Below are positions 2,463 through 57,457 of a stretch of DNA of 64,000 nt, piece by piece. The notes under the pieces are model-generated. The model ran no database searches and was not told where the DNA came from. It was given only the letters and a program-made list of their open reading frames with translations. The position numbers were made by a program, and so were the translations under genes. The stretch lies in NCBI GenBank assembly GCA_964624885.1, contig CAZUZY010000005.1:1305-65304 (forward strand). The letters are read 5' to 3'. Numbering within the stretch: the stretch's first letter is position 1; every line of letters starts with the position of its first letter. Origin of the DNA: an uncultured Polyangiales bacterium. Its GTDB lineage: Bacteria; Myxococcota_A; Polyangia; Polyangiales; JADJMO01.

Positions 2463-3746
2463 TCAGCCCTCGGCGTTCTTCACGCGCTCGCAGTCGGCGC
2501 CCACGGCGCGCAGCCGCTGCTCCATGCTCTCGTAGCCGCGGTCGAGGTGGTAGACCCGGCGGACCTCGGTCTCGCCCTCGGCCATCAGGCCCGCGATCAC
2601 GAGCGAGGCCGAGGCGCGCAGGTCGGTCGCCATGACGCTGGCGCCCTCCAGCGGCGTCGGGCCATGCACGATCGCGGCGCGCCCCCGCACCTCGATCTGC
2701 GCGCCCATGCGGGAGAGCTCGGGCACGTGCATGAAGCGATTCTCGAAGATGGTCTCGCTCATGACCGACTCGCCTTCGGCCTGGGTCATCAGCACGAGGA
2801 ACTGCGCCTGCATGTCGGTGGGGAAGCCGGGGTGCGGTGCGGTCGTGACGTGGACCGGCTTGAGCGGGCCCTCACGGCGGACGCGGATGCCCTCGCCCTC
2901 GCGCTCCACCTGCACGCCGGCCTGGCGCAGCTTGAGCACGAGCGCCTCCATGTCCTCGAGCACGGCGCCGAGGATGCGCACGTCGCTGCCAGGGACGACC
3001 GCGCCCGCGATGAGGTAGGTGCCCGCCTCGATGCGGTCGGGGATGACCGCGTGGTCGAACGGCGCGAGCTCGGGCACGCCGTCGATGTGCATCACGTCGG
3101 TACCGGCGCCGTCGACCCGCGCGCCCATCTTGTTGAGCACCCGGCCGAGCTCCTCGACCTCGGGCTCGCGCGCGCAGTTCCAGAGCGTGGTGCGGCCCTT
3201 GGCGAGCGCGGCGGCCATCATGATGTTCTCGGTGCCGGTCACCGTCGGCAGATCGAAGGCGATGTCGGCGCCGTGCAGCCGGCCGCCGTTGCCCGGCCCC
3301 TCGGCGAGGACGTAGCCGCGCTCGAGGCGGATCTTGGCGCCCATGGCCTCGAGTCCCTTGAGGTGCTGGTCGATCGGTCGCGCGCCGATGGCGCACCCAC
3401 CGGGCAGCGACACCTTGGCCTTGCCGTGGCGGGCCAGCAGGGGCCCGAGCACCAGCACCGAAGCGCGCATCTGCTTGACGAGCTCGTAGGGGGCCTCGAC
3501 GCGGGACAGCTTGGCCGAGGGCACGCGCACCTCGTGGGCCTCCTTGTCGACGACGACGTCGCAGCCGAGGAAGCGGAGCAGGGCCGCGGTGGTGTCGATG
3601 TCGCGCAGCCCGGGCACGTTGCGCAGCAGCGAAGGCCCCTCCGACAGCAGCACCGCGCACAGGATCGGCAAGGCCGCGTTCTTGGCCCCGCTGATCTGGA
3701 TGTCGCCCGCGAGCTTGCGTCCGCCGCGGACCCGAATGGCGTCCAT
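2463..3746 (-). CDS. murA: UDP-N-acetylglucosamine 1-carboxyvinyltransferase
   Basis: [26 protein letters not shown] (catalytic Cys), [21 protein letters not shown]. Confidence 0.98.
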
Positions 3747-3840
3747 GCCGAACGCTTAGACCGGGGGGCCCGGCCGGGCCAAGAGGTCCGGCGTCCGGGT
3801 GGACTGGGCGAAAGCGGTCAGAACCTGTAACACTGGGAAA

Positions 3841-3936
3841 TTGGCGTTGTCGCTCCCGGACCGTCCCCGTCCGGTCCTCCGCTCCGAATTGGCTTTGTCG
3901 CTCCCGGACCGTCCCCGTCCGGTCCTCCGCTCCGGA
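3841..3936 (+). repeat. Two tandem copies of a 48-bp hairpin-containing intergenic repeat (REP-like)
   Basis: TTGGC(G/T)TTGTCGCTCCCGGACCGTCCCCGTCCGGTCCTCCGCTCCG(A/G)A at 3841-3888 and 3889-3936. Internal stem CCGGAC/GTCCGG. Same unit recurs inverted at 28755-28829. Confidence 0.92.
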
Positions 3937-3945
3937 TGCAACCCC

Positions 3946-4974
3946 ATGCGCGTCCTCTCGCTGTTCCCGTTGGTCGCCGGTGTCGGTCTCTCGTCCGTCG
4001 CCTCGTGTCGCGCCGTCCTGGATCTCGAGCCGGGTCACCTGGTCGACGCGGCGGTCACCGACAGCGGACCCGACAGCGGACCCGACGCTGCGGTCCCGGG
4101 CAAGCGTCGGATCGCGCTCGTGCAGGCGTCACCCGATGCGCCCGGACTGTTCGGCTGCGCGGCCACGTTCCCCGACGCCAAGACGTTCGAGGGGGGCGGG
4201 CTCCCCGAGCTCGTCGTGGGTCCGTTCGGGCCGCCGAGCGGGTTGGCCTTCGGGGGCACCGAGGTGTTCGACGCACCCACGGAGCTGGCCGACGCCCTCG
4301 CGACCAAGCCGGTCCTCTTCTACTTCATCAGCGGTGCCCTCGGCTGCAAGGCACAGCTCGTGGACATCCGCGGGCAGACCAAGCGCCGCACCCTCGTCTC
4401 CGCGGGCCGCGTGCAGGCCGGCAGCACCTTGGCGATCATCGGCATGGGCTGCTCAGGGGCCGCGCGGCCCAACGGCGAGTGCGGCGCGGGCAGCAACTAC
4501 GAGGTGCGCCCCTTCGACGTCTCGGCGGCCGATCCCGGGGCGGGGCGCTTCTCCCTCCAGGTGCTGAACGCGTCGCTCTACACCGGGAGCGGGAGCGGAC
4601 CGCCCAGCTTCAACAACATCGACCTCTACCTCCACGCCTTCAAGGACGCGACACCGACGGGCGGTGCCCTCGAGGTCAGCAAGGACGGCGTGCTGTACGG
4701 CGGGGTCAAGCCCGACGTCCCTCGCAGCCTCTCTCCGGCGGCGGCAGGGGAGCAGCTGTTCCTGGTCGTGGCCCCCCATGGTGGGACCCCTTGCCCCGCC
4801 GGTCCCGGCGTCACGCCCGCGTGTCCGAGCGTGACGCTCCCGCTCCAGCCGCCGACCAACGACCCCAGCGCAGCCGTCGTCCCGGGCCACGCCCTGTTCG
4901 TCGTCCTCACGGGTTCGCCGGTGGGCATGGGCGGCCCGCCGACGGTGCGCGCGATCCTGGTGGGGGGGCGCTGA
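3946..4974 (+). CDS. Hypothetical lipoprotein
   Basis: ATG at 3946 gives MRVLSLFPLVAGVGLSSVASC (lipobox). The upstream extension in the ORF track only translates the 48-bp repeats. Confidence 0.75.
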   Translation: MRVLSLFPLVAGVGLSSVASCRAVLDLEPGHLVDAAVTDSGPDSGPDAAVPGKRRIALVQASPDAPGLFGCAATFPDAKTFEGGGLPELVVGPFGPPSGLAFGGTEVFDAPTELADALATKPVLFYFISGALGCKAQLVDIRGQTKRRTLVSAGRVQAGSTLAIIGMGCSGAARPNGECGAGSNYEVRPFDVSAADPGAGRFSLQVLNASLYTGSGSGPPSFNNIDLYLHAFKDATPTGGALEVSKDGVLYGGVKPDVPRSLSPAAAGEQLFLVVAPHGGTPCPAGPGVTPACPSVTLPLQPPTNDPSAAVVPGHALFVVLTGSPVGMGGPPTVRAILVGGR

Positions 4975-4980
4975 GCGTCG

Positions 4981-6564
4981 ATGGAGCGGCAGGCCCCCAT
5001 GGTCCGGCCCGGCGAGATCGTCGGGGGGAAGTACCGCGTCGAACGGGTGCTCGGCGAGGGTGGCATGGGTGCGGTCGTCGTGGCGCGACACGTCCACTTC
5101 GACGACCGCGTGGCCCTCAAGCTGCTGCACCCCCACGTCGCGCAGAACCCGGAGCTCGTCGCTCGTTTCGTCCGCGAAGGCCGCGCGGCGCGCCAGATCC
5201 GCAGCGAGCACGTGGTGCACATCACCGACGTCGATCTCCTCGACAACGGGCTGCCCTATCTGGTCATGGAGTATCTCGAGGGCGTCGACCTCGCGCAGCT
5301 CCTCCACCAACGGGGTCCACTCCCGGTGCCCCAGGCGATCGACTACCTCCTCCAGGTCTGCGAGGCGCTGGCCGAGGCGCACGCCCAGGGCATCGTCCAT
5401 CGCGACCTGAAGCCCGGCAACCTGTTCGTGTCGCGCCGACCGGACGGCTCGGCGTGCCTGAAGATCCTCGATTTCGGAATCTCCAAGGTCACCGATCCCA
5501 AGCAGCACGCGCTGACGACCACTTCGGCGATCATCGGGACGCCGCTGTACATGTCACCGGAGCAGCTACAGGCCGCGCGCGACGTGGACGCGCGCTCCGA
5601 CCTGTGGGCGCTCGGTGTCATCCTCTACGAGCTCGTGGCGGGGGTGGCGCCGTTCCGTGGGGAGACGCTCCCCCAGATCTCGGTCAAGATCATCCTCGAA
5701 GACCCGATCCCGCTCCACGTGAGCCAGCCCGGCGCCGATCCGCGCCTCGAGGCGATCCTCACGCGGTGCCTGCGCAAGGCGCGGGAGGAGCGCTTCCAGC
5801 ACGTCGGAGAGCTCGCGGCCGCGCTCGCACCGCTGGCCCCCGCCCACGCCATGCTCTCGGTGGAGCGCATCCACCGCCTCACCGGCCTCGCGCCGAGCGC
5901 CCTGTCGCTGCCTCCTCCGGCGCCGAGCCCCCACGCCGTGTCGATGGCCGTCTCCCAGGAGAAGGCCGTGATCTCGGTGGAGACGATGGCCGCCCCGCAC
6001 AGCGTGGAGCGGCAGCAGCTCGAGGCCTCCGCCACCGTCGGCGTTCCGATCGTGCAGGGTGCTCGCGAGCCAGTGCTGGAGCCGGCCTTCGCGTCGGCGC
6101 AGGTGGCGTCGCCGTCGACGATCGGCGGTACCTCGTCGCGGCTCTCGGCACAGACCACCACGCCCACGAGGGCGGGGCACTGGGCGCGCCTCGTCTCGCT
6201 CGTGGTGCTCGGCCTGTGCGCGCTCGGCGCGGTGCTCGCCTACGCGCTGCGCCCGGCGCCGCCGCGCCCCGTCGTGCAGGCCAAGCCGGTCGAGGAGCGC
6301 GTCGACGAGCCCGCGCCGCCTCCGAGCGCTTCGGCGAGCGAGTCGGCCCCGGGCCCCGCCGCGAGCGTCAGCGCGCCCAAGGTCTCGCCGACGATCGTCC
6401 CGAAGCCGAAGAGCTCCGCCACGGTGCCCGCGGTCCCGCCGTCGTCGACGGCTCCCGCCTCGGCACCGGTCGTCAAGGGATGGGGTGCGGACACGCCTCC
6501 ACAGCCCTCCACCAAGCCCACGGCACCGCCGACCGCACCGACCAAGAGCAATGAAGATCTCTGA
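4981..6564 (+). CDS. Membrane-anchored Hanks-type Ser/Thr protein kinase with Pro/Ala-rich C-terminal region
   Basis: LGEGGMG, VALK, HRDLKPGN, DFG, GTPLYMSPE, TM segment LVSLVVLGLCALGAVLAYAL. Confidence 0.95.
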   Translation: MERQAPMVRPGEIVGGKYRVERVLGEGGMGAVVVARHVHFDDRVALKLLHPHVAQNPELVARFVREGRAARQIRSEHVVHITDVDLLDNGLPYLVMEYLEGVDLAQLLHQRGPLPVPQAIDYLLQVCEALAEAHAQGIVHRDLKPGNLFVSRRPDGSACLKILDFGISKVTDPKQHALTTTSAIIGTPLYMSPEQLQAARDVDARSDLWALGVILYELVAGVAPFRGETLPQISVKIILEDPIPLHVSQPGADPRLEAILTRCLRKAREERFQHVGELAAALAPLAPAHAMLSVERIHRLTGLAPSALSLPPPAPSPHAVSMAVSQEKAVISVETMAAPHSVERQQLEASATVGVPIVQGAREPVLEPAFASAQVASPSTIGGTSSRLSAQTTTPTRAGHWARLVSLVVLGLCALGAVLAYALRPAPPRPVVQAKPVEERVDEPAPPPSASASESAPGPAASVSAPKVSPTIVPKPKSSATVPAVPPSSTAPASAPVVKGWGADTPPQPSTKPTAPPTAPTKSNEDL

Positions 6565-7585
6565 CCCCCCTGCGCTGGTCCTCGCCCTCTGCCTGGCCCT
6601 CGGCGCTCCGAGCGTCGCGGGGATCGCGCGCGCGCAGCCGAGCGAGCTCGACAAGGCCAACGCCCGCAAGCTGTTCAACGAAGGTCTCGATCTTCGCAAG
6701 GCGGGCGATGCGAGCGGCGCGCTCGCCAAGTTCGAGGCCGCCGACGCCCTCCTGCCCACCCCGCGGGGGCGGCTCGAGCTCGGGCGCCAGCGAGTGCTCG
6801 TGGGCCACCTGGTCGAGGGCTACACGACCCTCCGATCGGTCGCGCAGCTGAAGGTCGATCCCAAGGACGAGGCCAAGTACGCGCCCCACCGCGCCGAGGC
6901 CGAGAAGCTCGCGCTCGAGGTCGAGGCGAGGATCCCGACGCTGCGAATCGAGCTGGTCGGCGCGGCGACCGTCCAGATCGACGGCGTCACCGTCCCGAAC
7001 GCCGCGTTGACCCAGCCGCGCATGCTCGATCCCGGCAAGCACGTCGTCGTCGCGCGCGCCGAAGGGGGCCCCGAGAAGCGCGAGGAGATCACCCTCCTCG
7101 AGGGGGAGAGCAAGACGGTCAAGCTCGACGTGCAGAAGCCGAGCGGCTCCGTCGAAGCTGTGCCGACGCCGAACAAGCCCCTCGACCCGGCGCCCCCGGT
7201 CGCGCCACCGAAGAAGCCGCCGCTGCCTCGTGAAGGGGAGGGGCTCGGAACGCAGCAGACCTGGGCGCTCGTCACGGGGGGCGTGGCCGCGGTCGGCGTG
7301 ATCGTGGGCACCTGGGCGGGGCTCTCCGCGCGATCGCTCCGGGACGAGGCGGCGCCGTTCTGCACGGCGCCCGGTGGCGGGTGCACCGACATCCGTGGCG
7401 TCGACCTCAAGCAGAAGGCCCTCGGGCGCGCCGACGTGTCCACCGTGGCGTTCGTCTCCGCAGGCGTGTTGCTCGCAGGGGCCACCGTCCTCTGGTTCTC
7501 CGCGCCGTCGCGGGACCGCGGGCCGGTGATGCGCACGGGGCTCGTGGTCGGCGTGGGATCGATCGGACTCACGGGGCAGTTCTGA
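6551..7585 (+). CDS. Secreted TPR + PEGA-like domain protein with hydrophobic C-terminus
   Basis: Signal peptide MKISDPPALVLALCLALG, TPR-like ARKLFNEG..ALAKFEAA, PEGA-like VQIDG..LDPGKHVVVA, ends GLTGQF. Overlaps the kinase stop. Confidence 0.75.
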   Translation: MKISDPPALVLALCLALGAPSVAGIARAQPSELDKANARKLFNEGLDLRKAGDASGALAKFEAADALLPTPRGRLELGRQRVLVGHLVEGYTTLRSVAQLKVDPKDEAKYAPHRAEAEKLALEVEARIPTLRIELVGAATVQIDGVTVPNAALTQPRMLDPGKHVVVARAEGGPEKREEITLLEGESKTVKLDVQKPSGSVEAVPTPNKPLDPAPPVAPPKKPPLPREGEGLGTQQTWALVTGGVAAVGVIVGTWAGLSARSLRDEAAPFCTAPGGGCTDIRGVDLKQKALGRADVSTVAFVSAGVLLAGATVLWFSAPSRDRGPVMRTGLVVGVGSIGLTGQF

Positions 7586-7763
7586 CGGCCTTCCGTCCGG
7601 GTCCGCGCGCGCAGGCTTCCCCCGCTCGGAGTCTTCGATTAGCCTCGCGTCTCCTCCCCACCTTGTCCGACACCGGTGTTCCGTGGTCGTCCAGCTTCTC
7701 CGCGTGTCCGACACGGCAGAGAGGTGCCGTCGGAGGAGCCGTACGACCGTCTTTTCTTTCTAT

Positions 7764-7837
7764 GGGCCCATAGCTCAACAGGTCAGAGCCCCCGGCTCAT
7801 AACCGGGCCGTTCCTGGTTCGAGTCCAGGTGGGCCTA
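7764..7837 (+). tRNA. tRNA-Ile(CAU), lysidine type (tRNA-Ile2); CCA not encoded
   Basis: Acceptor GGGCCCA/TGGGCCT, anticodon arm CCCGG-CTCATAA-CCGGG, T-loop GGTTCGAGTCC. C4:G69 and C5:G68 (TilS determinants) favour Ile2 over Met. Confidence 0.88.
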
Positions 7838-7859
7838 TCAACCTCCCGAGGATCCTCCT

Positions 7860-8636
7860 TTGAACCAAAGTGTCCGTGCCCAGTTCGACGTCCTGAAAGA
7901 GCTCGTCGTCGTCGACGAGGAGATACGGAAGCTCGACGCGGACTTGGTGAAGGAGCGTGAGGCCCTCGAGGGGACCAAGCAAGAGCTCGAGCGCGTGCGC
8001 GAGCAGATCGAGGTCGAGCGTCACCGCTACGACGACATCGAGGCCGACCGTGGGGCCCGCATGCAGGAGGCCCGCGTGCTCAACTCCCAGCTCGAGCGCT
8101 CGCGGGACAAGCTCAACCGCGCCCGCAACGAGAAGGAGCTGCAGGCCGTCCAGCGCGAGCTCGAGGAGACCCGCAAGCTCCTGCGCGACGTCGAGGACGC
8201 GGTCGGCAAGCGGGCGCTCGAGCTCGAGGAGCTCAAGAAGTCGATCATCGACCACGAGGAGCAAGAGGCCACCATGGTCGCGCGCATCGGCGAGACCGAG
8301 GGCGCCGTCTCCGCCCGCCTCTCCGAGATCCAGGGCCTGCGCGACGAGCGCGCCGGCACCCGCGCGGGCATCGCCAAGAAGCTGCCCACGGCCACGCTGC
8401 GCAAGTACGACCAGATCCGCACCCGCCGCAACCCGGCCGCCGCCCCGCTCGTTCTCGAGGGCGGTCGCTGCAAGTCGTGCAACATGGCGATCCCCCCGCA
8501 GATGGCCCAGCGCATCGCCCGCATCGACGTGCTCGAGCAGTGCCCCTCGTGCAACCGCTTCCTCTTCGTGGACGGTCCGGGCTCGTCGCCGCCCGCTTCG
8601 CCGAGCGCCCCTCCCAACAGTCCGGGAGCTTCCTAG
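7860..8636 (+). CDS. Coiled-coil + C4 zinc-ribbon protein (DUF164 / CT398 / HP0958 family)
   Basis: TTG start with GAGGA 7 nt upstream, long coiled coil, CKSCNMAIPPQ...CPSCNRFL. Confidence 0.9.
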   Translation: MNQSVRAQFDVLKELVVVDEEIRKLDADLVKEREALEGTKQELERVREQIEVERHRYDDIEADRGARMQEARVLNSQLERSRDKLNRARNEKELQAVQRELEETRKLLRDVEDAVGKRALELEELKKSIIDHEEQEATMVARIGETEGAVSARLSEIQGLRDERAGTRAGIAKKLPTATLRKYDQIRTRRNPAAAPLVLEGGRCKSCNMAIPPQMAQRIARIDVLEQCPSCNRFLFVDGPGSSPPASPSAPPNSPGAS

Positions 8637-8645
8637 GACCAAGCG

Positions 8646-10016
<1,371 letters not shown>

Positions 10017-53138: not shown

Positions 53139-53220
53139 GCGACGGTGGCGGAACTGGCATACGCACAGGGTTTAGGTTCCTGCGCCGCAAGGCTTGAGGG
53201 TTCGAGTCCCTCCCGTCGCA
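53139..53220 (+). tRNA. tRNA-Leu(UAG); CCA not encoded
   Basis: Acceptor GCGACGG/CCGTCGC, anticodon loop TT-TAG-GT, long variable arm, GGTTCGAGTCC. Confidence 0.95.
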
Positions 53221-53262
53221 CCGCTGGCTACGATTCGTGGATACGAGGTGTACCCTCGCGGC

Positions 53263-54651
53263 ATGTCGACCGCCGCCGCGTTCCTGGCCCTCGTGGCCGA
53301 CGTCCGGGCGCGCCTCGAGGCTCACCCCGAGACCTTCAGCCTCCAGCACCTCTCGGGCACGCGCGCGACCGCGGCCGATCTCGCCGCTGTCGAGGCGCGG
53401 CTCGGCGTGTCGCTCCCGCCGATGCTGCGGGCCCTCCACCTCGAGGTCGGTGCGCCGTTCGGCTTCTACTGGCAGGTCCGCGAGGGGGGGAAGCTCGACG
53501 CGGACGACTCACCCAGCGGCCAGCTCGAGATCGTCGCGACCGACCAGCTCGCTCTGCATCCGCCGCGCGTGTTGCGCTTCACCAACGACGGCTACGGCAA
53601 CGGCTTCGCGCTCGACTACCGCAAGAAGGGCGCGCCCAAGCTCGTCTTCTTCGACCACGACGAGGAGAAGCTCACGCCACGCAAGGAGAAGACCCTCGAG
53701 GCGCTCTTCGCGGCGTGGGCCGAGGTGCTGTTCGTCAACACCGAGACCGAGCCGCTCGACGTCGACCCGGTCCTCGAGCTCGTGTGGCCGGAGAAGGCGC
53801 AGCCGTGGCCCGAGAGGAAGCCAGCGCCTGCGGGGTTCGTCACCCTGCCGTTCCCGGCCGAGCGCTGCATCGGTGGCGTGGACTTCGACGGCGATCGCCT
53901 CTTCGTCTCCACCTACGAGGGCGAGGTGCTGGTCTTCGATCTCGCGAGCCACGCGCTCCTCTCGACGCAGGCCGGCCTGCCGGCCTTGCGCACGATGGCG
54001 CGGCTGCCGGATGGCCGGCTCCTCGTGTCGAGCGAGGCCTTCGGGGTGTTCGTCCTCCCGGTCGACGGCGCGTTCTCCGCGCGCCTGCCGTGGCTGGCGC
54101 AAGGGGCCGCCGCGCTGCGAGTGCTGGGCGACGAGGTGCTCGTGGTCGGCGACGCGCGCGGATGGCTCGTCGACTTCGCCGGCCGGGTGCGGTGCGAGTT
54201 CGCCGTCCCCAAGAACGTGATCGGGGTCGTCGCGTTCTCCGAGGGGCTCGTGCTCGCCGGCGACGACGAGATCGCGTGTGTCGACCGCTCCACGGGCGCG
54301 CGACGCTGGGCCGACGCCACTCCGACGACCGGAGGCCTGTTCGTGCGGGGCGACGAGGTCTCCCTGGTTCTGGTGGGCGGTGGCCTCGTGACCTGGAGCG
54401 GCGACGGGAAGCGGATTGGAAAGAGCCCCCACAAACCCAAGGCGCACTTCTCCGTCGTGCAGACCGCGGACCGCATCGTCGCGGCGCGTCTCGGGACCCT
54501 CGAGGTGCTGGATCACACGGGAAGATCCCTGTCGCAGCGCGCGTTCGCGACGGAGGCCGACGCGGTGCGCGTCCACCTCCACCCCGATGGCCACCGGCTG
54601 CTCGTGCGCACCGACGACGCGCTGCACGTCACCGACGTCGATCGCTTGTAA
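53263..54651 (+). CDS. SMI1/KNR4 (SUKH)-like domain fused to a beta-propeller (WD40/PQQ-like)
   Basis: AT.ADLAAVEARLGVSLP..LRALH, NDGYGNGFALD..K.G.P.LVFFDHD, C-terminal repeated beta blades. Confidence 0.72.
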   Translation: MSTAAAFLALVADVRARLEAHPETFSLQHLSGTRATAADLAAVEARLGVSLPPMLRALHLEVGAPFGFYWQVREGGKLDADDSPSGQLEIVATDQLALHPPRVLRFTNDGYGNGFALDYRKKGAPKLVFFDHDEEKLTPRKEKTLEALFAAWAEVLFVNTETEPLDVDPVLELVWPEKAQPWPERKPAPAGFVTLPFPAERCIGGVDFDGDRLFVSTYEGEVLVFDLASHALLSTQAGLPALRTMARLPDGRLLVSSEAFGVFVLPVDGAFSARLPWLAQGAAALRVLGDEVLVVGDARGWLVDFAGRVRCEFAVPKNVIGVVAFSEGLVLAGDDEIACVDRSTGARRWADATPTTGGLFVRGDEVSLVLVGGGLVTWSGDGKRIGKSPHKPKAHFSVVQTADRIVAARLGTLEVLDHTGRSLSQRAFATEADAVRVHLHPDGHRLLVRTDDALHVTDVDRL

Positions 54652-55275
54652 CTACCCGAGCACCTTCGCGGCGCGCTCGAGCCAGCGATGCAGGGAGGCC
54701 GCGTCCTTCGGGGCCTTCTCGAGCCCGTGCTCGTCGACGAGTCGCTCCATCGCAGGCCCGTCCTTGGGTGCGACGTCGTGCTCACGGAGCTCGCGGTCCA
54801 CTGCGGCGTCACCGAGCTCCTCGGTCTGGTGTCGGCCGGTCAGGGCCAGCACCCACGACTCGAGCCGTTCCACCGCGACCGCGCCGACGACTGGGGGAGC
54901 GTTCTCGATGACCTGGTTGATGACTGAGGTGTCGCGCAGGAGGGTCTCGATCTCTCTTTCGCGGTCGGTGTCGTTGTCGCGGTCCCGGACAAGAACGACC
55001 GCGTCGAAGCCGTGTTCCTTCGCTCGCAGCGTGAGCCGTAGGATCGTCTGCTGTTCCCGGGCGCGGTGCGCCGCGGCGCCGATCTTCTTGCCGACGTACT
55101 TGGCGACGTCCTTCCAACGGACGCCGTCCGCTACCTCCCACCCGTTCGGGAAACGCTTCCGCAGCAGGGCGACGACGACCCCCTGGGATCCTAAGGTCTC
55201 GCGATACGGCGGCGTGTGCGCCCAGCGCCCGATGTCGTTGCTTCCTTCGCCCGCGACCAGTACCCGCAGCATCAC
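54652..55275 (-). CDS. Small TOPRIM-like protein (DUF4276/RloB/AriB-like) partner of the ATPase
   Basis: RVLVAGEGSND, VLVRDRDND (DxD), ERLESWVLA, ATGA overlap with the ATPase stop. Confidence 0.65.
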   Translation of the reverse strand: MMLRVLVAGEGSNDIGRWAHTPPYRETLGSQGVVVALLRKRFPNGWEVADGVRWKDVAKYVGKKIGAAAHRAREQQTILRLTLRAKEHGFDAVVLVRDRDNDTDREREIETLLRDTSVINQVIENAPPVVGAVAVERLESWVLALTGRHQTEELGDAAVDRELREHDVAPKDGPAMERLVDEHGLEKAPKDAASLHRWLERAAKVLG

Positions 55276-56336
55276 GACACCTTGGTGGGTGCCTGCAGGA
55301 GATCGTGCTCGTCGCGTCCATCGGCGTGGCTGAGCCAGAGCTCGCCGTTCGCGTAGATCTTCGACCGCTCCGCGTAGTTGTACGTCTCGCTGAGCAGGCG
55401 GGCGTGCGTGCCACCTTCGTCACGGGTGATGACTGACACCTCATTCGCTTCGAGCTCGTTGATCACAAGCGGGCTGTGCGTGGCCAGCAGGACCTGTGTG
55501 GTCTTGGACACCTCGCGGAGGATGCGCACCACGTCCGCGACGCGTGCCGGATGCAGGCCGTTCTCGGGCTCCTCGACGAGGAGCAGCGAGGTCGGCGCCA
55601 GGTACGGCTGCGCGGCGTAGCCGAGGTAGTAGAGGAGCCCCTCACTCATCGCCTCAGCGGGCACCACAGTGCCGTCCTTGAGCTCTATCTGCAGCGTCTT
55701 CGCGACCGCGCCGCTAGGCACGGTCACGTTCACCCAGCCGAGCTTGGCGACCGACTCGAAGTGCCTGAGGAACTCGCTGCGGAGCGCGATGAAGCCATCG
55801 AGGTCGCGGCTCACCAGGGCATCGTAGACGGAGCCGAGACCGTAGCCGCGTTCGTCGAGATCGACACGCTCGCTGTTGGGAATGAGGCCCGTCGCGACGC
55901 GCATGGCGTCCGGGTCCAGGCGAACGAGACGGGCGGGACCGATGCGGCCAGCCATCGTGACGGTCGTTGGCTCGTCGGGGCTAGCAAGCAGCCCTCGGGT
56001 GGTCCAGCTGGCGCGCTTGGCCCGATTGACCAGGCGACCTCCATTGAGAACACGCTCTTCGATGGGCAGGATCGCCACCGCATATCCGAGGCCGTCCGAG
56101 TAGGTTCCCTCGATACGGGTCTCGGTATCCATGCGCGGGTGGAAAGGTCGCCACTGACCGTCCGAGCGCTCGAACGTGCCGCCGCCGAACTGCATCAGCG
56201 TGCGCAGGGCGCGGAGGATCGTGCTCTTCCCGCTGTCGTTCGGGCCGATCAGGGCGTGCAGCGGTGTGAGCGAGAGCTGCAGGTTCTTGATGCACCCGTA
56301 GTTCTCGATCTCCAGCTGCGTGAGAGGCGGCGTCAT
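55272..56336 (-). CDS. ABC/AAA (AAA_15/AAA_21-type) ATPase
   Basis: LTQLEIENYGCI, Walker A GPNDSGKS, signature MSEG, Walker B LLVEEPENGLHP, H-loop ATHSP. Confidence 0.9.
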   Translation of the reverse strand: MTPPLTQLEIENYGCIKNLQLSLTPLHALIGPNDSGKSTILRALRTLMQFGGGTFERSDGQWRPFHPRMDTETRIEGTYSDGLGYAVAILPIEERVLNGGRLVNRAKRASWTTRGLLASPDEPTTVTMAGRIGPARLVRLDPDAMRVATGLIPNSERVDLDERGYGLGSVYDALVSRDLDGFIALRSEFLRHFESVAKLGWVNVTVPSGAVAKTLQIELKDGTVVPAEAMSEGLLYYLGYAAQPYLAPTSLLLVEEPENGLHPARVADVVRILREVSKTTQVLLATHSPLVINELEANEVSVITRDEGGTHARLLSETYNYAERSKIYANGELWLSHADGRDEHDLLQAPTKVS

Positions 56337-56377
56337 CGCCCCCGACTCTACCCGCCGCCTCTGCACCTGGCCACCGG

Positions 56378-57457
56378 CTACGGCTGCGACAGCTCCACCA
56401 CGCAGTCGTCGCCGACCATCAGGCTGAGCGCCCCGTGCTTGGCCGGGCCCGGCCGCACGAGCACGCGCTTGCCGAGCAGCGAGTCCTCGAGGCGCGGGAT
56501 GTCCGTGATGCTGCTCTCGGCCATCAGCACCGAGTGCTCCACGGTGGACCGGATCACGCGCACGCCGTCGCCGATCGCCGTGAAGGGGCCGATCTTCGAG
56601 TCCACGATCTCGACGCCCTCGCCGACGATCGTGGGCCCGCGGATCACCGAGCGCACGATGCGCGCACCCTTCCCGATGCGCACGCGGCCTGAGATCTTGC
56701 TCTCGCCGTCCACGTGGCCCTCCATGCCCGACACCAGCCAGTCGTCGAGCACCGTGTCGTTGGCGAGGAGCATGTCGTCCTTCTTGCCGGTGTCGAGCCA
56801 CCACGAGGTGAGGCGGGTGAACTTCACCGTGCCGCCGAGCTCGATGACCTTGCTGATGGCGTCGGTGATCTCGAGCTCGCCGCGGGGCGAGGGCTTGATC
56901 TGGGCGATGGCGTCGAAGATCGACGGGCGGAACAGGTAGATCCCGACGAGGGCCAGGTTCGACTTGGGCTCGCGCGGCTTCTCGACGAGGCCGACCACGT
57001 TGCCGGCCGCGTCCACCTCGGCCACGCCGAACGACGAGGGGTTCGGCACCTCCTTGAGCATCACGGAGGCGGCGAGGGACGGGTCGGCCTTGAACGTCTC
57101 CACCGGCTCGCGGATCTTCATGCCGATGAGGTTGTCGCCGAGGTACATCACGAAGTCGCTGCCCTCGAGGAACGGCTTGGCGGTGGCCACCGCGTGGGCG
57201 AGTCCCGCCGGGCGGTCCTGCAGGATGTAGTGCAGCTGGGCGCCGAACGCGCTGCCGTCGCCGAGCGCGCGCTTGATCTCGCCGCCGGTCTCCGGGGAGA
57301 TGATGACCGCGATCTCGGTGACCCCGGCGTTCACCAGGTTGTCGATGACGTAGAAGAGCACGGGCCGGTTGGCCACCGGGACGAGCTGCTTGGCGCCGGT
57401 GTACGTGAGCGGGCGGAGGCGCGTGCCGGAGCCGCCGGCGAGGACCAGGCCCTTCAC
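56378..57457 (-). CDS. rfbA: Glucose-1-phosphate thymidylyltransferase (long form)
   Basis: LAGGSGTRLRPLT..AKQL.PV, YLGDN, VEKP, KPSPRGELEITD, WLDTG, C-terminal left-handed helix repeats. Confidence 0.93.
   Translation of the reverse strand: MKGLVLAGGSGTRLRPLTYTGAKQLVPVANRPVLFYVIDNLVNAGVTEIAVIISPETGGEIKRALGDGSAFGAQLHYILQDRPAGLAHAVATAKPFLEGSDFVMYLGDNLIGMKIREPVETFKADPSLAASVMLKEVPNPSSFGVAEVDAAGNVVGLVEKPREPKSNLALVGIYLFRPSIFDAIAQIKPSPRGELEITDAISKVIELGGTVKFTRLTSWWLDTGKKDDMLLANDTVLDDWLVSGMEGHVDGESKISGRVRIGKGARIVRSVIRGPTIVGEGVEIVDSKIGPFTAIGDGVRVIRSTVEHSVLMAESSITDIPRLEDSLLGKRVLVRPGPAKHGALSLMVGDDCVVELSQP

Follow-up and report, generated by a model that had tools for sequence, protein, structure and literature searches.

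Two overlapping genes on the minus strand, at positions 54652–56336 of the window (the whole stretch of 64,000 nucleotides that was analysed), encode an ABC-type ATPase and a small Toprim-like protein. They form an obligate, co-evolving and intact pair, and this pair is a horizontally acquired, accessory and mobile cassette that occupies a replaceable slot in a myxobacterial chromosome. Sequence comparisons place it nearest to the described ATPase–DUF4276 pairs, HEC-01 and MAD3/MAD4, of which it appears to be a divergent relative. Combinations of an ATPase with a Toprim protein are a recurring design of bacterial immunity that is found in OLD, Gabija, PARIS, AbiL, MADS and HEC-01. By analogy, we lean towards the view that the pair is an ATPase-gated nuclease defence module and represents a divergent, mainly myxococcotal lineage of the HEC-01/MAD3-MAD4 kind.

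An earlier note on this DNA had described both open reading frames with their coordinates, the complete set of ATPase motifs, and the GEGSND, RDRD and ESW motifs of the small protein; all of these were confirmed, with both genes on the minus strand. The ATPase gene (55272–56336) encodes 354 residues. A longer reading of 510 residues from a GTG at 56804 was rejected, because it would overlap rfbA, because gene callers on independent contigs give the 354-residue protein, and because homologues align from residues 1–5. The small gene (54652–55275) follows directly. Its overlap with the ATPase gene, given as ATGA in the earlier note, is a different one: read directly from the sequence, the junction is ...GTG TCG TGA with GTGATGCTG, that is, a 4-nt GTGA overlap (55272–55275, minus strand) for a small protein of 207 residues starting at GTG, or a 1-nt TGATG overlap for one of 206 residues starting at the adjacent ATG at 55272. 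Homologous loci keep an overlap of one or the other length, the ATPase gene lies directly upstream of the small gene in all 30 loci compared, and from locus to locus the identity of one protein to its window counterpart rises and falls with that of the other (r = 0.93). The proposal of an ABC-type ATPase whose translation is coupled to that of a small protein bearing catalytic motifs of the Toprim type is supported.

The ATPase, which we propose to be the sensor or regulator subunit, matches the Pfam families AAA_21 (E = 1.9e-29) and AAA_15 (E = 3.9e-21), with weak similarity to SMC_N/AAA_23. All of its motifs are encoded on the minus strand. Among 28 partner ATPases, the Walker A motif GPNDSGKS (residues 31–38; 56223–56246) is invariant at G31, N33, D34, G36 and K37, and the ABC signature-like MSEG (residues 230–233; 55638–55649) at S231 and G233. 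They are followed by a Walker B/D-loop, EEPENGLHP (residues 255–263; 55548–55574), with invariant E255, P257, E258, G260, H262 and P263, and by an H-loop, ATHSP (residues 285–289; 55470–55484), with invariant T286, H287 and P289. A hypervariable, indel-rich insert (residues ~46–135; 55932–56201, minus strand) lies between Walker A and a conserved RLDPDALR motif. Its mean pairwise identity among 20 family ATPases is 0.03–0.25, compared with 0.5–0.8 in the catalytic motifs, and it may be the region that recognises a trigger.

When compared with the PADLOC collection, the ATPase finds HEC-01A (PDLC04178, E = 1.6e-29) at the top of 153 families, and eight more HEC-01A models match at E <= 1e-18. 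The PADLOC models for Old, GajA and AbiLi also match, with E-values from 1e-17 to 1e-24. The best NCBIfam match is MAD3 (E = 1.7e-28), whose 99.9 bits lie far under the equivalog cut-off of 420. Among solved structures in the PDB, the family profile reaches the OLD nuclease of Thermus scotoductus first (6P74, E = 1.3e-23), followed by PtuA (E = 1e-17) and, more weakly, by GajA (E = 9e-9) and AriA (E = 1.7e-8). On these similarity scores, the ATPase appears nearest to HEC-01A and to the ATPases of OLD and PtuA. A single-sequence structure prediction gave a pLDDT of 32 and was unusable.

The small protein is the proposed nuclease effector, and we assign it to the DUF4276 superfamily (Toprim-like) based on family profiles, motifs and an AF2 model with a pLDDT of 92. 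This model has the order β1-α-β2-α-β3-α-β4-α, and the conserved motifs, all encoded on the minus strand, follow its strands. GEGSND spans residues 9–14, and its first half, GEG (residues 9–11; 55243–55251), lies at the position of the Toprim catalytic Glu after strand β1 (residues 3–9). RDRD (residues 97–100; 54976–54987) provides a DxD that ends strand β3 (residues 92–98). ERLESW (residues 136–141; 54853–54870), which includes ESW at 139–141, follows strand β4 and contributes a second acidic cluster and a Trp. Across 44 diverse homologues there is no variation at G9, E10, G11, R97, D98, D100, E139 or W141, so these motifs are not chance occurrences; E136 is invariant in the 13 closest sequences. 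The Toprim superfamily is recognised by a conserved Glu after strand β1 and a DxD after strand β3, and both DUF4276 and RloB have been placed in it based on these same residues (PMC12065111). In the model, E10 lies after β1 and D98-x-D100 at the end of β3. Toprim proteins are also characterised by a three-layer α/β fold with its sheet ordered β2-β1-β3-β4, and the linear β-α succession in the model fits Toprim.

What can be said about the ancestry of this protein? The family comprises 815 clusters at 50% identity, mostly from Myxococcota. Not one of 120 listed members carries a Pfam label, and the window protein has no significant match among the Pfam, NCBIfam and PADLOC models, in line with the earlier suggestion of a possibly uncharacterised branch. 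The domain models proposed for checking the pair gave a divided picture: AAA_21 and AAA_15 match the ATPase strongly, but for the small protein DUF4435 gives no match, DUF4276 stays sub-threshold at 15.3 bits (cut-off 30.2) and RloB is weak (E = 0.014). Direct comparison with HEC-01B gives E = 0.0012, and with PDC-M25B an insignificant 0.034. These are the two PADLOC families that the wider family matches best: HEC-01B is found by 16 of the 44 members and PDC-M25B by 19, the most of any PADLOC model, with a best E-value of 2.5e-6 in each case.

A link to DUF4276 required the comparison of alignments with alignments and a bridge branch. Using hhalign, the family connects to this bridge with 99.6% probability (E = 5e-24), and the bridge to DUF4276 with 80.8% (E = 1e-5). 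Members of the bridge pass or come near the DUF4276 cut-off and match HEC-01B down to E = 7.9e-11; one of them (L117) combines this value with a DUF4276 score of 34.2 bits. The direct comparison of the family with DUF4276 reaches only 33–48% (47.6% in one comparison), and the comparison with a single HEC-01B sequence yields a motif match of only 14 columns. In structure searches, BFVD yielded an RloB-like protein as its top fold match (probability 0.99, TM 0.43, E = 3e-3). A Foldseek search of the PDB gave nothing at E < 1e-3, its first 50 entries included no Toprim chain, and the family profile found no OLD, GajA or AriB chain among PDB sequences at E <= 10. Since there is no direct PDB match and the direct hhalign probability is this low, the Toprim assignment rests on the transitive chain together with the motifs. 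The chain supports, transitively, that the small protein is a remote homologue of DUF4276 and HEC-01B.

HEC-01, the first of the close systems, is the "Hma-embedded candidate 01" of PADLOC and consists of HEC-01A, an ABC ATPase, and HEC-01B, a DUF4276/Toprim protein. Its reference (L008) is encoded on plasmid pX14-3-NDM of E. coli, where pglX and pglZ of BREX-1 flank it. The common layout is an ATPase of ~355–375 residues encoded upstream of, and overlapping with, a small protein of ~190–210 residues. In addition to the HEC-01A match of the ATPase, three motifs of the effector are in register with HEC-01B: (V/G)EG after β1, DxD/DxE after β3, and AV-x-x-x-E-x-W after β4. In the alignments, GEG corresponds to VEG of DUF4276, RDRD to its TDLE, and ERLESW to VEAW of DUF4276/HEC-01B. 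There are also clear differences. The effector falls far under the calling threshold, and the HPNCPS-type C-terminal motif of DUF4276 is missing and replaced by a DAxSLxxWLxRA helix. While the named relatives of the HEC-01B reference are mostly proteobacterial, the present family belongs to Myxococcota and Planctomycetota. Moreover, the pair stands alone among housekeeping genes: no Hma, BREX or RM genes flank it in the window or in nine other neighbourhoods of the family, although such embedding is how HEC-01 was discovered and not a strict criterion of membership.

The experimental record of the DUF4276 branch is contradictory. HEC-01B has the metal-binding site of OLD in common, and the original test of HEC-01 found no protection (bioRxiv 10.1101/2024.01.29.577857), but a representative of HEC-01 did confer protection on E. 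coli B (PMC12881386). In the methylation-associated defence system (MADS) of Pseudomonas aeruginosa, MAD3 is an AAA-family ABC ATPase and MAD4 a DUF4276 homologue (PMC12065111). Deletion of mad3 or mad4 lowers phage resistance, and the system comprises eight genes, of which MAD6-8 are mandatory (bioRxiv 10.1101/2023.03.30.534895). The window ATPase resembles MAD3 not only in NCBIfam but also in PADLOC (mad3, E = 9.7e-23), whereas no mad4 model is among the PADLOC matches of the effector and nothing like MAD6, MAD7 or MAD8 flanks the pair.

Further systems share some of the features. PDC-M25 is a phage-defence candidate of PADLOC, consisting of an ATPase (A) and a small protein (B), that was predicted from its embedding in other defence systems; PDC-M25A matches the ATPase with E = 5.9e-20, while the PDC-M25B similarity lies in the relatives of the effector rather than in the window protein itself. 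OLD provides the closest solved relative of the ATPase, but OLD and GajA carry their Toprim domain as a C-terminal fusion to the ATPase, and here the Toprim-like protein has a separate, overlapping gene; a Toprim_OLD match (Pfam) is absent from the ATPase, which ends at residue 354. AbiL combines the ATPase AbiLi, whose model matches ours, with the RloB-like AbiLii, reminiscent of the RloB-like fold match of the effector, whose sequence similarity to RloB is sub-threshold.

The earlier note had called the pair a candidate PARIS-like variant. If it truly were one, a hexameric scaffold of the AriA type would keep a Toprim protein of the AriB type sequestered, to be released upon sensing of an anti-restriction protein and to cleave host tRNA. 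PARIS is the mechanistically best-understood model of such pairs, with a sensor ATPase that releases a nuclease, and AriA and AriB co-evolve (PMC11464382). The general layout is indeed the same, in that the gene of an AAA_15/21 ABC ATPase precedes that of a co-evolving Toprim-type protein, and the PADLOC model for AriA, PDLC02980, matches the ATPase with E = 5e-28. The AriA matches in PADLOC are probably generic, because these models, at 304 and 373 positions, are exactly as long as Pfam AAA_21 and AAA_15. Solved AriA (8UX9) is matched only over the Walker B/H-loop residues 233–297, barely better than ABC transporters are, and AriA carries the insertion sequences IS1 and IS2 that form its coiled-coil hexameric scaffold; in length and profile match our ATPase does not fit the AriA type, and it lies far closer to OLD and PtuA. 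Both proteins are also much smaller than their counterparts (354 residues compared with 53–55 kDa for AriA, and 207 residues compared with about 35 kDa for AriB). The effector of PARIS belongs to DUF4435, the one studied here is DUF4276-like: it has no match to DUF4435 (PF14491) or AriB at E <= 1 in Pfam and PADLOC, and its family profile retrieves no AriB chain from the PDB at E <= 10. The pair is thus not a member of PARIS; the negative DUF4435 tests refute membership in the family, and we regard a true PARIS variant as highly improbable. PARIS is often carried by phages or satellites, whereas phage and plasmid matches are absent for the present family in tblastn searches with the effector. 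Cleavage of tRNA by this effector would be pure analogy, and the nearby tRNA-Leu says nothing about its target.

How might an ATPase-gated module of the HEC-01/MAD3-MAD4 kind work? If PARIS, OLD/Gabija and MADS are taken as guides, the overlapping genes would yield the two proteins in a fixed proportion, and these would assemble into a complex. In this complex, the ATPase would hold a metal-dependent Toprim nuclease (with E10, D98/D100 and E136/E139) in an inactive state. The hypervariable insert of the ATPase might recognise a cue from a phage or mobile element, and ATP binding or hydrolysis could then release or activate the nuclease. The latter would cut nucleic acid, either DNA or tRNA/RNA, and thereby stop the infection or the infected cell. 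The complex, its gating, its trigger, its substrate and the role in defence are all inferred from these parallels.

The evidence on mobility is more direct. The pair and a 41-bp spacer (56337–56377) fill a slot of 1,726 bp (54652–56377) that reaches from the stop codon of rfbA to that of a SUKH gene. On one side lie the SUKH/PQQ gene and a tRNA-Leu(tag) at 53139–53222, on the other rfbA, as the earlier note had placed them; rfbB and O-antigen ABC transporter genes are further neighbours. A comparison across relatives, as suggested in that note, showed that the two closest genomes (L126 and L127) lack the pair and carry a protease gene in this slot. Their homology to the window stops at 56366/56378 and picks up again at 54651/54652, which puts the breakpoints at the flanking stop codons; the unrelated DNA in between (3.2 kb and 2.2 kb) codes for a metzincin/FG-GAP-like protein. 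The cassette is also absent at 79 other rfbA loci and 79 further Polyangiales aconitase loci. Conversely, a related copy elsewhere (L016) carries a fragment of rfbA. The flanks of the other family loci are unrelated to each other, with ordinary chromosomal housekeeping neighbours being typical.

Base composition adds to this. The third-position GC content (GC3) is 0.854 in the ATPase gene and 0.861 in the small gene, compared with 0.959–0.985 in six neighbouring genes. Relative to a crude set of open reading frames across the window (median 0.927, sd 0.047) the pair is in the lower tail but not extreme. Of 15 family loci, 14 have a GC3 lower than the median of their flanks (p = 1e-4). The lower GC content claimed before thus holds for third positions, while over whole genes the difference is small (66.1% in the ATPase gene and 68.4% in the small gene, compared with 69.5% in rfbA and 70.7% in the window as a whole). 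Low GC3 could reflect a foreign origin or, alternatively, low expression. Taken together with the replacement in the slot, the absence elsewhere, the rfbA remnant with L016 and the unrelated flanks, it identifies an accessory and mobile cassette, which behaves as a unit with clean insertion boundaries, and horizontal acquisition, as proposed earlier, is borne out.

These observations also bear on another explanation, a housekeeping pair for nucleic-acid processing or repair, in which a RecF/Rad50-like ATPase would act with an RNase M5-like Toprim protein, or else a component of the rfb (dTDP-sugar/O-antigen) operon. The pair follows rfbA after 41 bp in the same orientation and may be co-transcribed with it, and a search of the slot edges for a promoter, a terminator or att-like repeats found nothing convincing. 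The chromosomal housekeeping surroundings of the family and the weak SMC_N/AAA_23 likeness of the ATPase would fit as well. Against this stand the two closest genomes, which retain rfbA and rfbB without the pair, its absence from the other rfbA and aconitase loci, and the family members that adjoin unrelated genes instead of rfb genes. A scan for one narrow pattern, derived from an alignment of 13 sequences, found the family in at least 25 of 185,579 species genomes, a lower bound. This patchy spread is a poor fit to a core function, and we consider a housekeeping role quite improbable.

A selfish cassette is harder to dismiss. Here, a toxic nuclease would be neutralised by the ATPase, as in toxin-antitoxin modules, and the unit would offer no advantage against phages but maintain itself through post-segregational killing or hitch-hiking. 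The cassette is mobile, its GC3 is consistently low, and as a solo two-gene unit it is scattered over unrelated housekeeping loci. Genes for RM, defence, integrases or transposases do not occur in the nine family neighbourhoods inspected, so that guilt by association lends no support to a defence role. The failure of HEC-01 to protect in one study (bioRxiv 10.1101/2024.01.29.577857) is consistent with addiction, as is the finding that mad5 of MADS could be removed only when mad2 or mad3 was removed with it (bioRxiv 10.1101/2023.03.30.534895), which implies that a MAD3-dependent activity is toxic when unchecked. Two points speak against it. The hypervariable insert is easier to reconcile with a sensor that experiences diversifying pressure than with a simple antidote. 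Addiction modules usually thrive on plasmids and phages, but tblastn searches of both with the effector gave zero matches. We think pure addiction unlikely. The boundary between abortive infection and toxin-antitoxin systems is blurred, so this explanation is in part the same mechanism under another name.

The reading as an ATPase-gated defence module can be taken one step further. The pair might be a functional system against phages or mobile elements that current tools miss, belonging to a large clade (at least 815 clusters at 50% identity), mainly specific to Myxococcota and Planctomycetota, of ATPase-gated Toprim nucleases of the DUF4276 type, which would enter ordinary chromosomal slots as solo cassettes and sense myxophage triggers with the hypervariable ATPase insert; this we put forward tentatively, as a possibility that may well fail. 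If the pair is defensive, it would extend the defence catalogues for two poorly covered phyla and offer a small, well-modelled effector for mechanistic work, and it could become a tractable model in which to study how the HEC-01/MAD3-MAD4 class as a whole works and what substrate it acts on. If not, it is one more ATPase–nuclease cassette. In either case, the locus reveals a sizeable sister clade in soil bacteria with large genomes that Pfam, NCBIfam and PADLOC have overlooked and left unannotated. Its members come mainly from Myxococcota and also from Planctomycetota. Two proteins of 1059 residues without a Pfam match, one encoded in the insert of L017 and the other beside the pair in L122, were compared and showed no homology to each other.

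Both reading frames of the gene pair are genuine and lie on the minus strand, with all of the motifs seen in the earlier note. The ATPase gene (55272-56336, minus strand, 354 aa) carries the Walker A motif GPNDSGKS at residues 31-38, the ABC signature MSEG at 230-233, the Walker B/D-loop segment EEPENGLHP at 255-263 and the H-loop ATHSP at 285-289. The product of the small-protein gene (54652-55275, minus strand) is 207 aa long with a GTG start and 206 aa long with the neighbouring ATG, and displays GEGSND (residues 9-14), RDRD (97-100) and ESW (139-141). The junction was previously read as an ATGA overlap; it is in fact GTG-TCG-TGA / GTGATGCTG, a 4-nt GTGA overlap, or 1 nt with the ATG start. 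Overlaps of 1 or 4 nt also occur in the gene calls of homologous loci.

The pairing of the two genes is obligate. An ATPase homologue stands directly upstream of the small gene in 30/30 loci (25 from genomes, 5 from metagenomes), and the identities of both proteins to the window pair correlate (r = 0.93; 0.89 once the closest pair is removed). Two metagenome contigs, L005 (7444-8004, 186 aa) and L006 (7693-8004, 103 aa), have a short gene call for the partner ATPase. In L005, ATPase residues 11-350 align by tblastn in a single frame, so the short call probably stems from the choice of start site or from gene calling. The alignment in L006 is confined to residues 229-352, which may reflect truncation or an assembly artefact; a further locus, L007, has the same effector and an intact ATPase.

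The lower GC content attributed to the pair holds at third codon positions, where its compositional signal sits: GC3 is 0.854 in the ATPase gene and 0.861 in the small gene versus 0.959-0.985 in six neighbouring genes, although against a crude window-wide ORF set (median 0.927, sd 0.047) this is the lower tail and not extreme. The whole-gene deficit, however, is small (66.1% and 68.4% versus 69.5% in rfbA and 70.7% in the window). On the far side of the pair, a plus-strand gene with SMI1_KNR4/SUKH and PQQ-repeat regions (53263-54651, 462 aa) runs convergently with the small gene, their stop codons abutting at 54651|54652 with zero intergenic bases; beyond it lies tRNA-Leu(tag) (53139-53222). 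SUKH domains are commonly found as immunity proteins in polymorphic toxin systems. The gene's GC3 of 0.91 is higher than in the cassette and lower than in the core genes. Since it is conserved in both closest genomes (86-89% aa identity), it lies outside the cassette.

These closest species-level genomes are the Myxococcales MAGs JADJMO01 (loci L017 and L126) and JAEUKC01 (L127), at ~90% DNA identity. Both retain rfbB-rfbA and SUKH-tRNA-Leu-aconitase-kinase, and in L126 and L127 homology to the window ends at the rfbA stop codon (56366/56378) and restarts at the SUKH stop codon (54651/54652). The slot between is filled by unrelated DNA (L126:7093-10307, 3.2 kb; L127:7081-9237, 2.2 kb), 93% identical between the two and ~1.1 kb longer in L126. 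It encodes a metzincin-type protease, probably secreted, with a HEFGHxxGxxHE motif (HEFGHLLGFAHE), a weak Astacin match and FG-GAP-like repeats. The pair is absent from 79 other Polyangiales aconitase loci and from 79 other rfbA loci (tblastn, E <= 1e-5); one aconitase locus, L078, has only a distant ATPase (26% identity) that lacks a small-protein partner. At least six metagenome contigs show the window arrangement again and presumably belong to the same species.

The homologous copy closest to the window pair is L016 (GCA_022844085; 77% and 83% aa identity). It is collinear with window 56550-54656 and so includes a C-terminal remnant of rfbA, a 50-aa ORF just upstream of the cassette (L016:259-411). 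The genes on both sides differ from those of the window, and such a remnant amid unrelated context is direct evidence for past transfer of the cassette with flanking DNA. The low GC3 travels with the cassette, being below the flanking-gene median in 14/15 assessable loci (mean difference -0.08, Wilcoxon p = 1.2e-4). These results mark the cassette as accessory and mobile, and the horizontal acquisition proposed earlier is borne out by the replaced slot, the remnant and the low GC3.

Searches of the slot edges and neighbourhood gave no integrase or transposase and no convincing att-like repeat, promoter or terminator. Close to the slot boundaries, within ~45 nt of each, lie the two copies of a 21-nt imperfect direct repeat (81% identity; TGGCCACCGGCTGCTCGTGCG at 54588-54608, TGGCCACCGGCTACGGCTGCG at 56368-56388), which is probably due to chance in 70% GC DNA. 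In the closest genome, locus L017 (JADJMO010000016.1) has a separate insertion of 6.5 kb (2947-9514) that parts the SUKH gene from tRNA-Leu(tag); its large ORFs (1059 aa, 824 aa and others) found no match in a Pfam search. As this insertion is missing from the window and L127, the tRNA-Leu side is a second variable spot.

A word-indexed search with the small protein recovered 13 relatives only, whereas a full HMM search of 1.84 billion representatives returned 815 clusters at E <= 1e-3, 293 of them at E <= 1e-30; the best 150 of the 815 are nearly all 180-240 aa long with full-length matches. None of the 120 members listed is labelled by Pfam, and almost all bear the name 'hypothetical protein' (one is labelled a PadR regulator); those with a named organism belong to Polyangiaceae, Enhygromyxa and 'Deltaproteobacteria' MAGs. 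A 44-sequence alignment keeps G9, E10, G11, G32, W54, R97, D98, D100, R105, E139 and W141 invariant. Judged by these searches, the small protein is part of a large unannotated family. It matches known profiles only below threshold: RloB (E = 0.014), DUF4276 (E = 0.025, 15.3 bits against a cut-off of 30.2) and HEC-01B (E = 0.0012). Among the 44 family members, 19 match PDC-M25B and 16 match HEC-01B (PDLC04210), each with a best E of 2.5e-6, and five match DUF4276 (best E = 0.0019).

The AlphaFold2 model of the small protein, built on a 13-sequence alignment, is confident (pLDDT 92, pTM 0.89). Its predicted order is beta1(3-9)-alpha-beta2(46-53)-alpha-beta3(92-98)-alpha-beta4(129-134)-alpha followed by three C-terminal helices, with E10 just after beta1 and the DxD at the close of beta3, an arrangement that serves as a Toprim criterion (PMC12065111). 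While the element order fits the proposed Toprim fold, a Foldseek search of the PDB had no match below E = 1e-3 and no Toprim chain among its 50 best, and in BFVD the top fold match was to an RloB-like protein of a phage (E = 3e-3, probability 0.99, TM 0.43). The family profile retrieved no OLD, GajA or AriB chain from PDB sequences.

Because the fold searches gave no clear match, a homology chain was built. Compared alignment to alignment with DUF4276, the family scores E = 4.5e-4 (probability 33%), with motifs in register (GEG/VEG, RDRD/TDLE, AVExxExW/AVKAxEAW). The bridge is a sister branch (L110-L121) of 225-243-aa proteins, for example L117:9998-10618 and L111:10001-10678, from Planctomycetota (Gemmataceae, Pirellulaceae, Planctomyces), Nannocystaceae, other Myxococcota and other genomes. 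They are always preceded by an ATPase and retain the three motifs, adding a conserved C-terminal CPxGFxPF that is absent from the window's family. DUF4276 matches 8/10 of them (L117 with 34.2 bits, above the cut-off) and HEC-01B 7/10, down to E = 7.9e-11. Local hhalign runs with larger alignments connect family and bridge (99.6%, E = 5e-24, 196 columns), bridge and DUF4276 (80.8%, E = 1.3e-5), and family and DUF4276 (47.6%, E = 1.9e-4). From this chain we conclude that the small protein is a putative divergent member of the DUF4276 superfamily, with the sister branch bridging its family to Pfam DUF4276. DUF4276 has been placed in the Toprim superfamily (PMC12065111), and HEC-01B is reported to have the metal-binding site of the OLD nuclease (bioRxiv 10.1101/2024.01.29.577857).

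The ATPase matches AAA_21 (E = 1.9e-29) and AAA_15 (E = 3.9e-21) in Pfam; its top PADLOC family is HEC-01A (E = 1.6e-29) and its top NCBIfam match MAD3 (99.9 bits against a cut-off of 420). The PADLOC 'AriA' models that it also matches have lengths of 304 and 373, equal to AAA_21 and AAA_15, and these matches are thus probably generic. A profile of 28 partner ATPases, searched against solved structures, finds Thermus OLD (6P74; E = 1.3e-23), PtuA (E = 1e-17) and GajA (E = 9e-9), and AriA at E = 1.7e-8 over the Walker B/H-loop region only; ordinary ABC transporters come next at ~1e-8. With no AriB chain among the PDB sequence matches of the effector family, the PARIS label of the earlier note is not supported, while its idea of a horizontally acquired ATPase/Toprim-like sensor-effector pair from an uncharacterised branch is. 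Among described systems the nearest are ATPase + DUF4276 pairs (HEC-01, MAD3/MAD4), and on sequence evidence the window pair is a divergent lineage of these, mainly in Myxococcota and missed by current models.

What does the pair do? Genomic context gives defence no support: nine neighbourhoods inspected hold ordinary chromosomal genes (kinases, dehydrogenases, tRNA synthetase genes, two-component systems) and no known defence genes, and phage and plasmid searches gave no homologue of the effector. A selfish, toxin-antitoxin-like cassette is the main alternative here. Relatives give mixed functional evidence. In its defining study HEC-01 did not protect E. coli (bioRxiv 10.1101/2024.01.29.577857); one representative from cold-seep metagenomes made E. 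coli B resistant to one or more of T4, T5 and T7 (PMC12881386). In MADS, phage resistance drops on deletion of mad3 or mad4, and mad5 can be deleted only jointly with mad2 or mad3 (bioRxiv 10.1101/2023.03.30.534895). We lean slightly towards a defence role in which, by analogy with PARIS, OLD/Gabija and MADS, the ATPase would gate a Toprim nuclease and infection would act as the trigger. Catalytic motifs are invariant across the partner ATPases, whereas residues ~46-135 form a hypervariable, indel-rich insert (pairwise identity 0.03-0.25 versus 0.5-0.8 in the motifs), which may be a candidate region for trigger recognition.

The HEC-01 reference pair used here (L008:2986-4670; HEC-01A E = 1e-181, HEC-01B E = 5e-100), most listed relatives of whose small protein are labelled DUF4276, lies between pglX and pglZ of BREX-1 on the E. 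coli plasmid pX14-3-NDM (NZ_CP084057.1). This plasmid is conjugative and IncFIA, with NDM carriage suggested by its name, and RefSeq labels the pair just 'AAA family ATPase' and 'hypothetical protein'.
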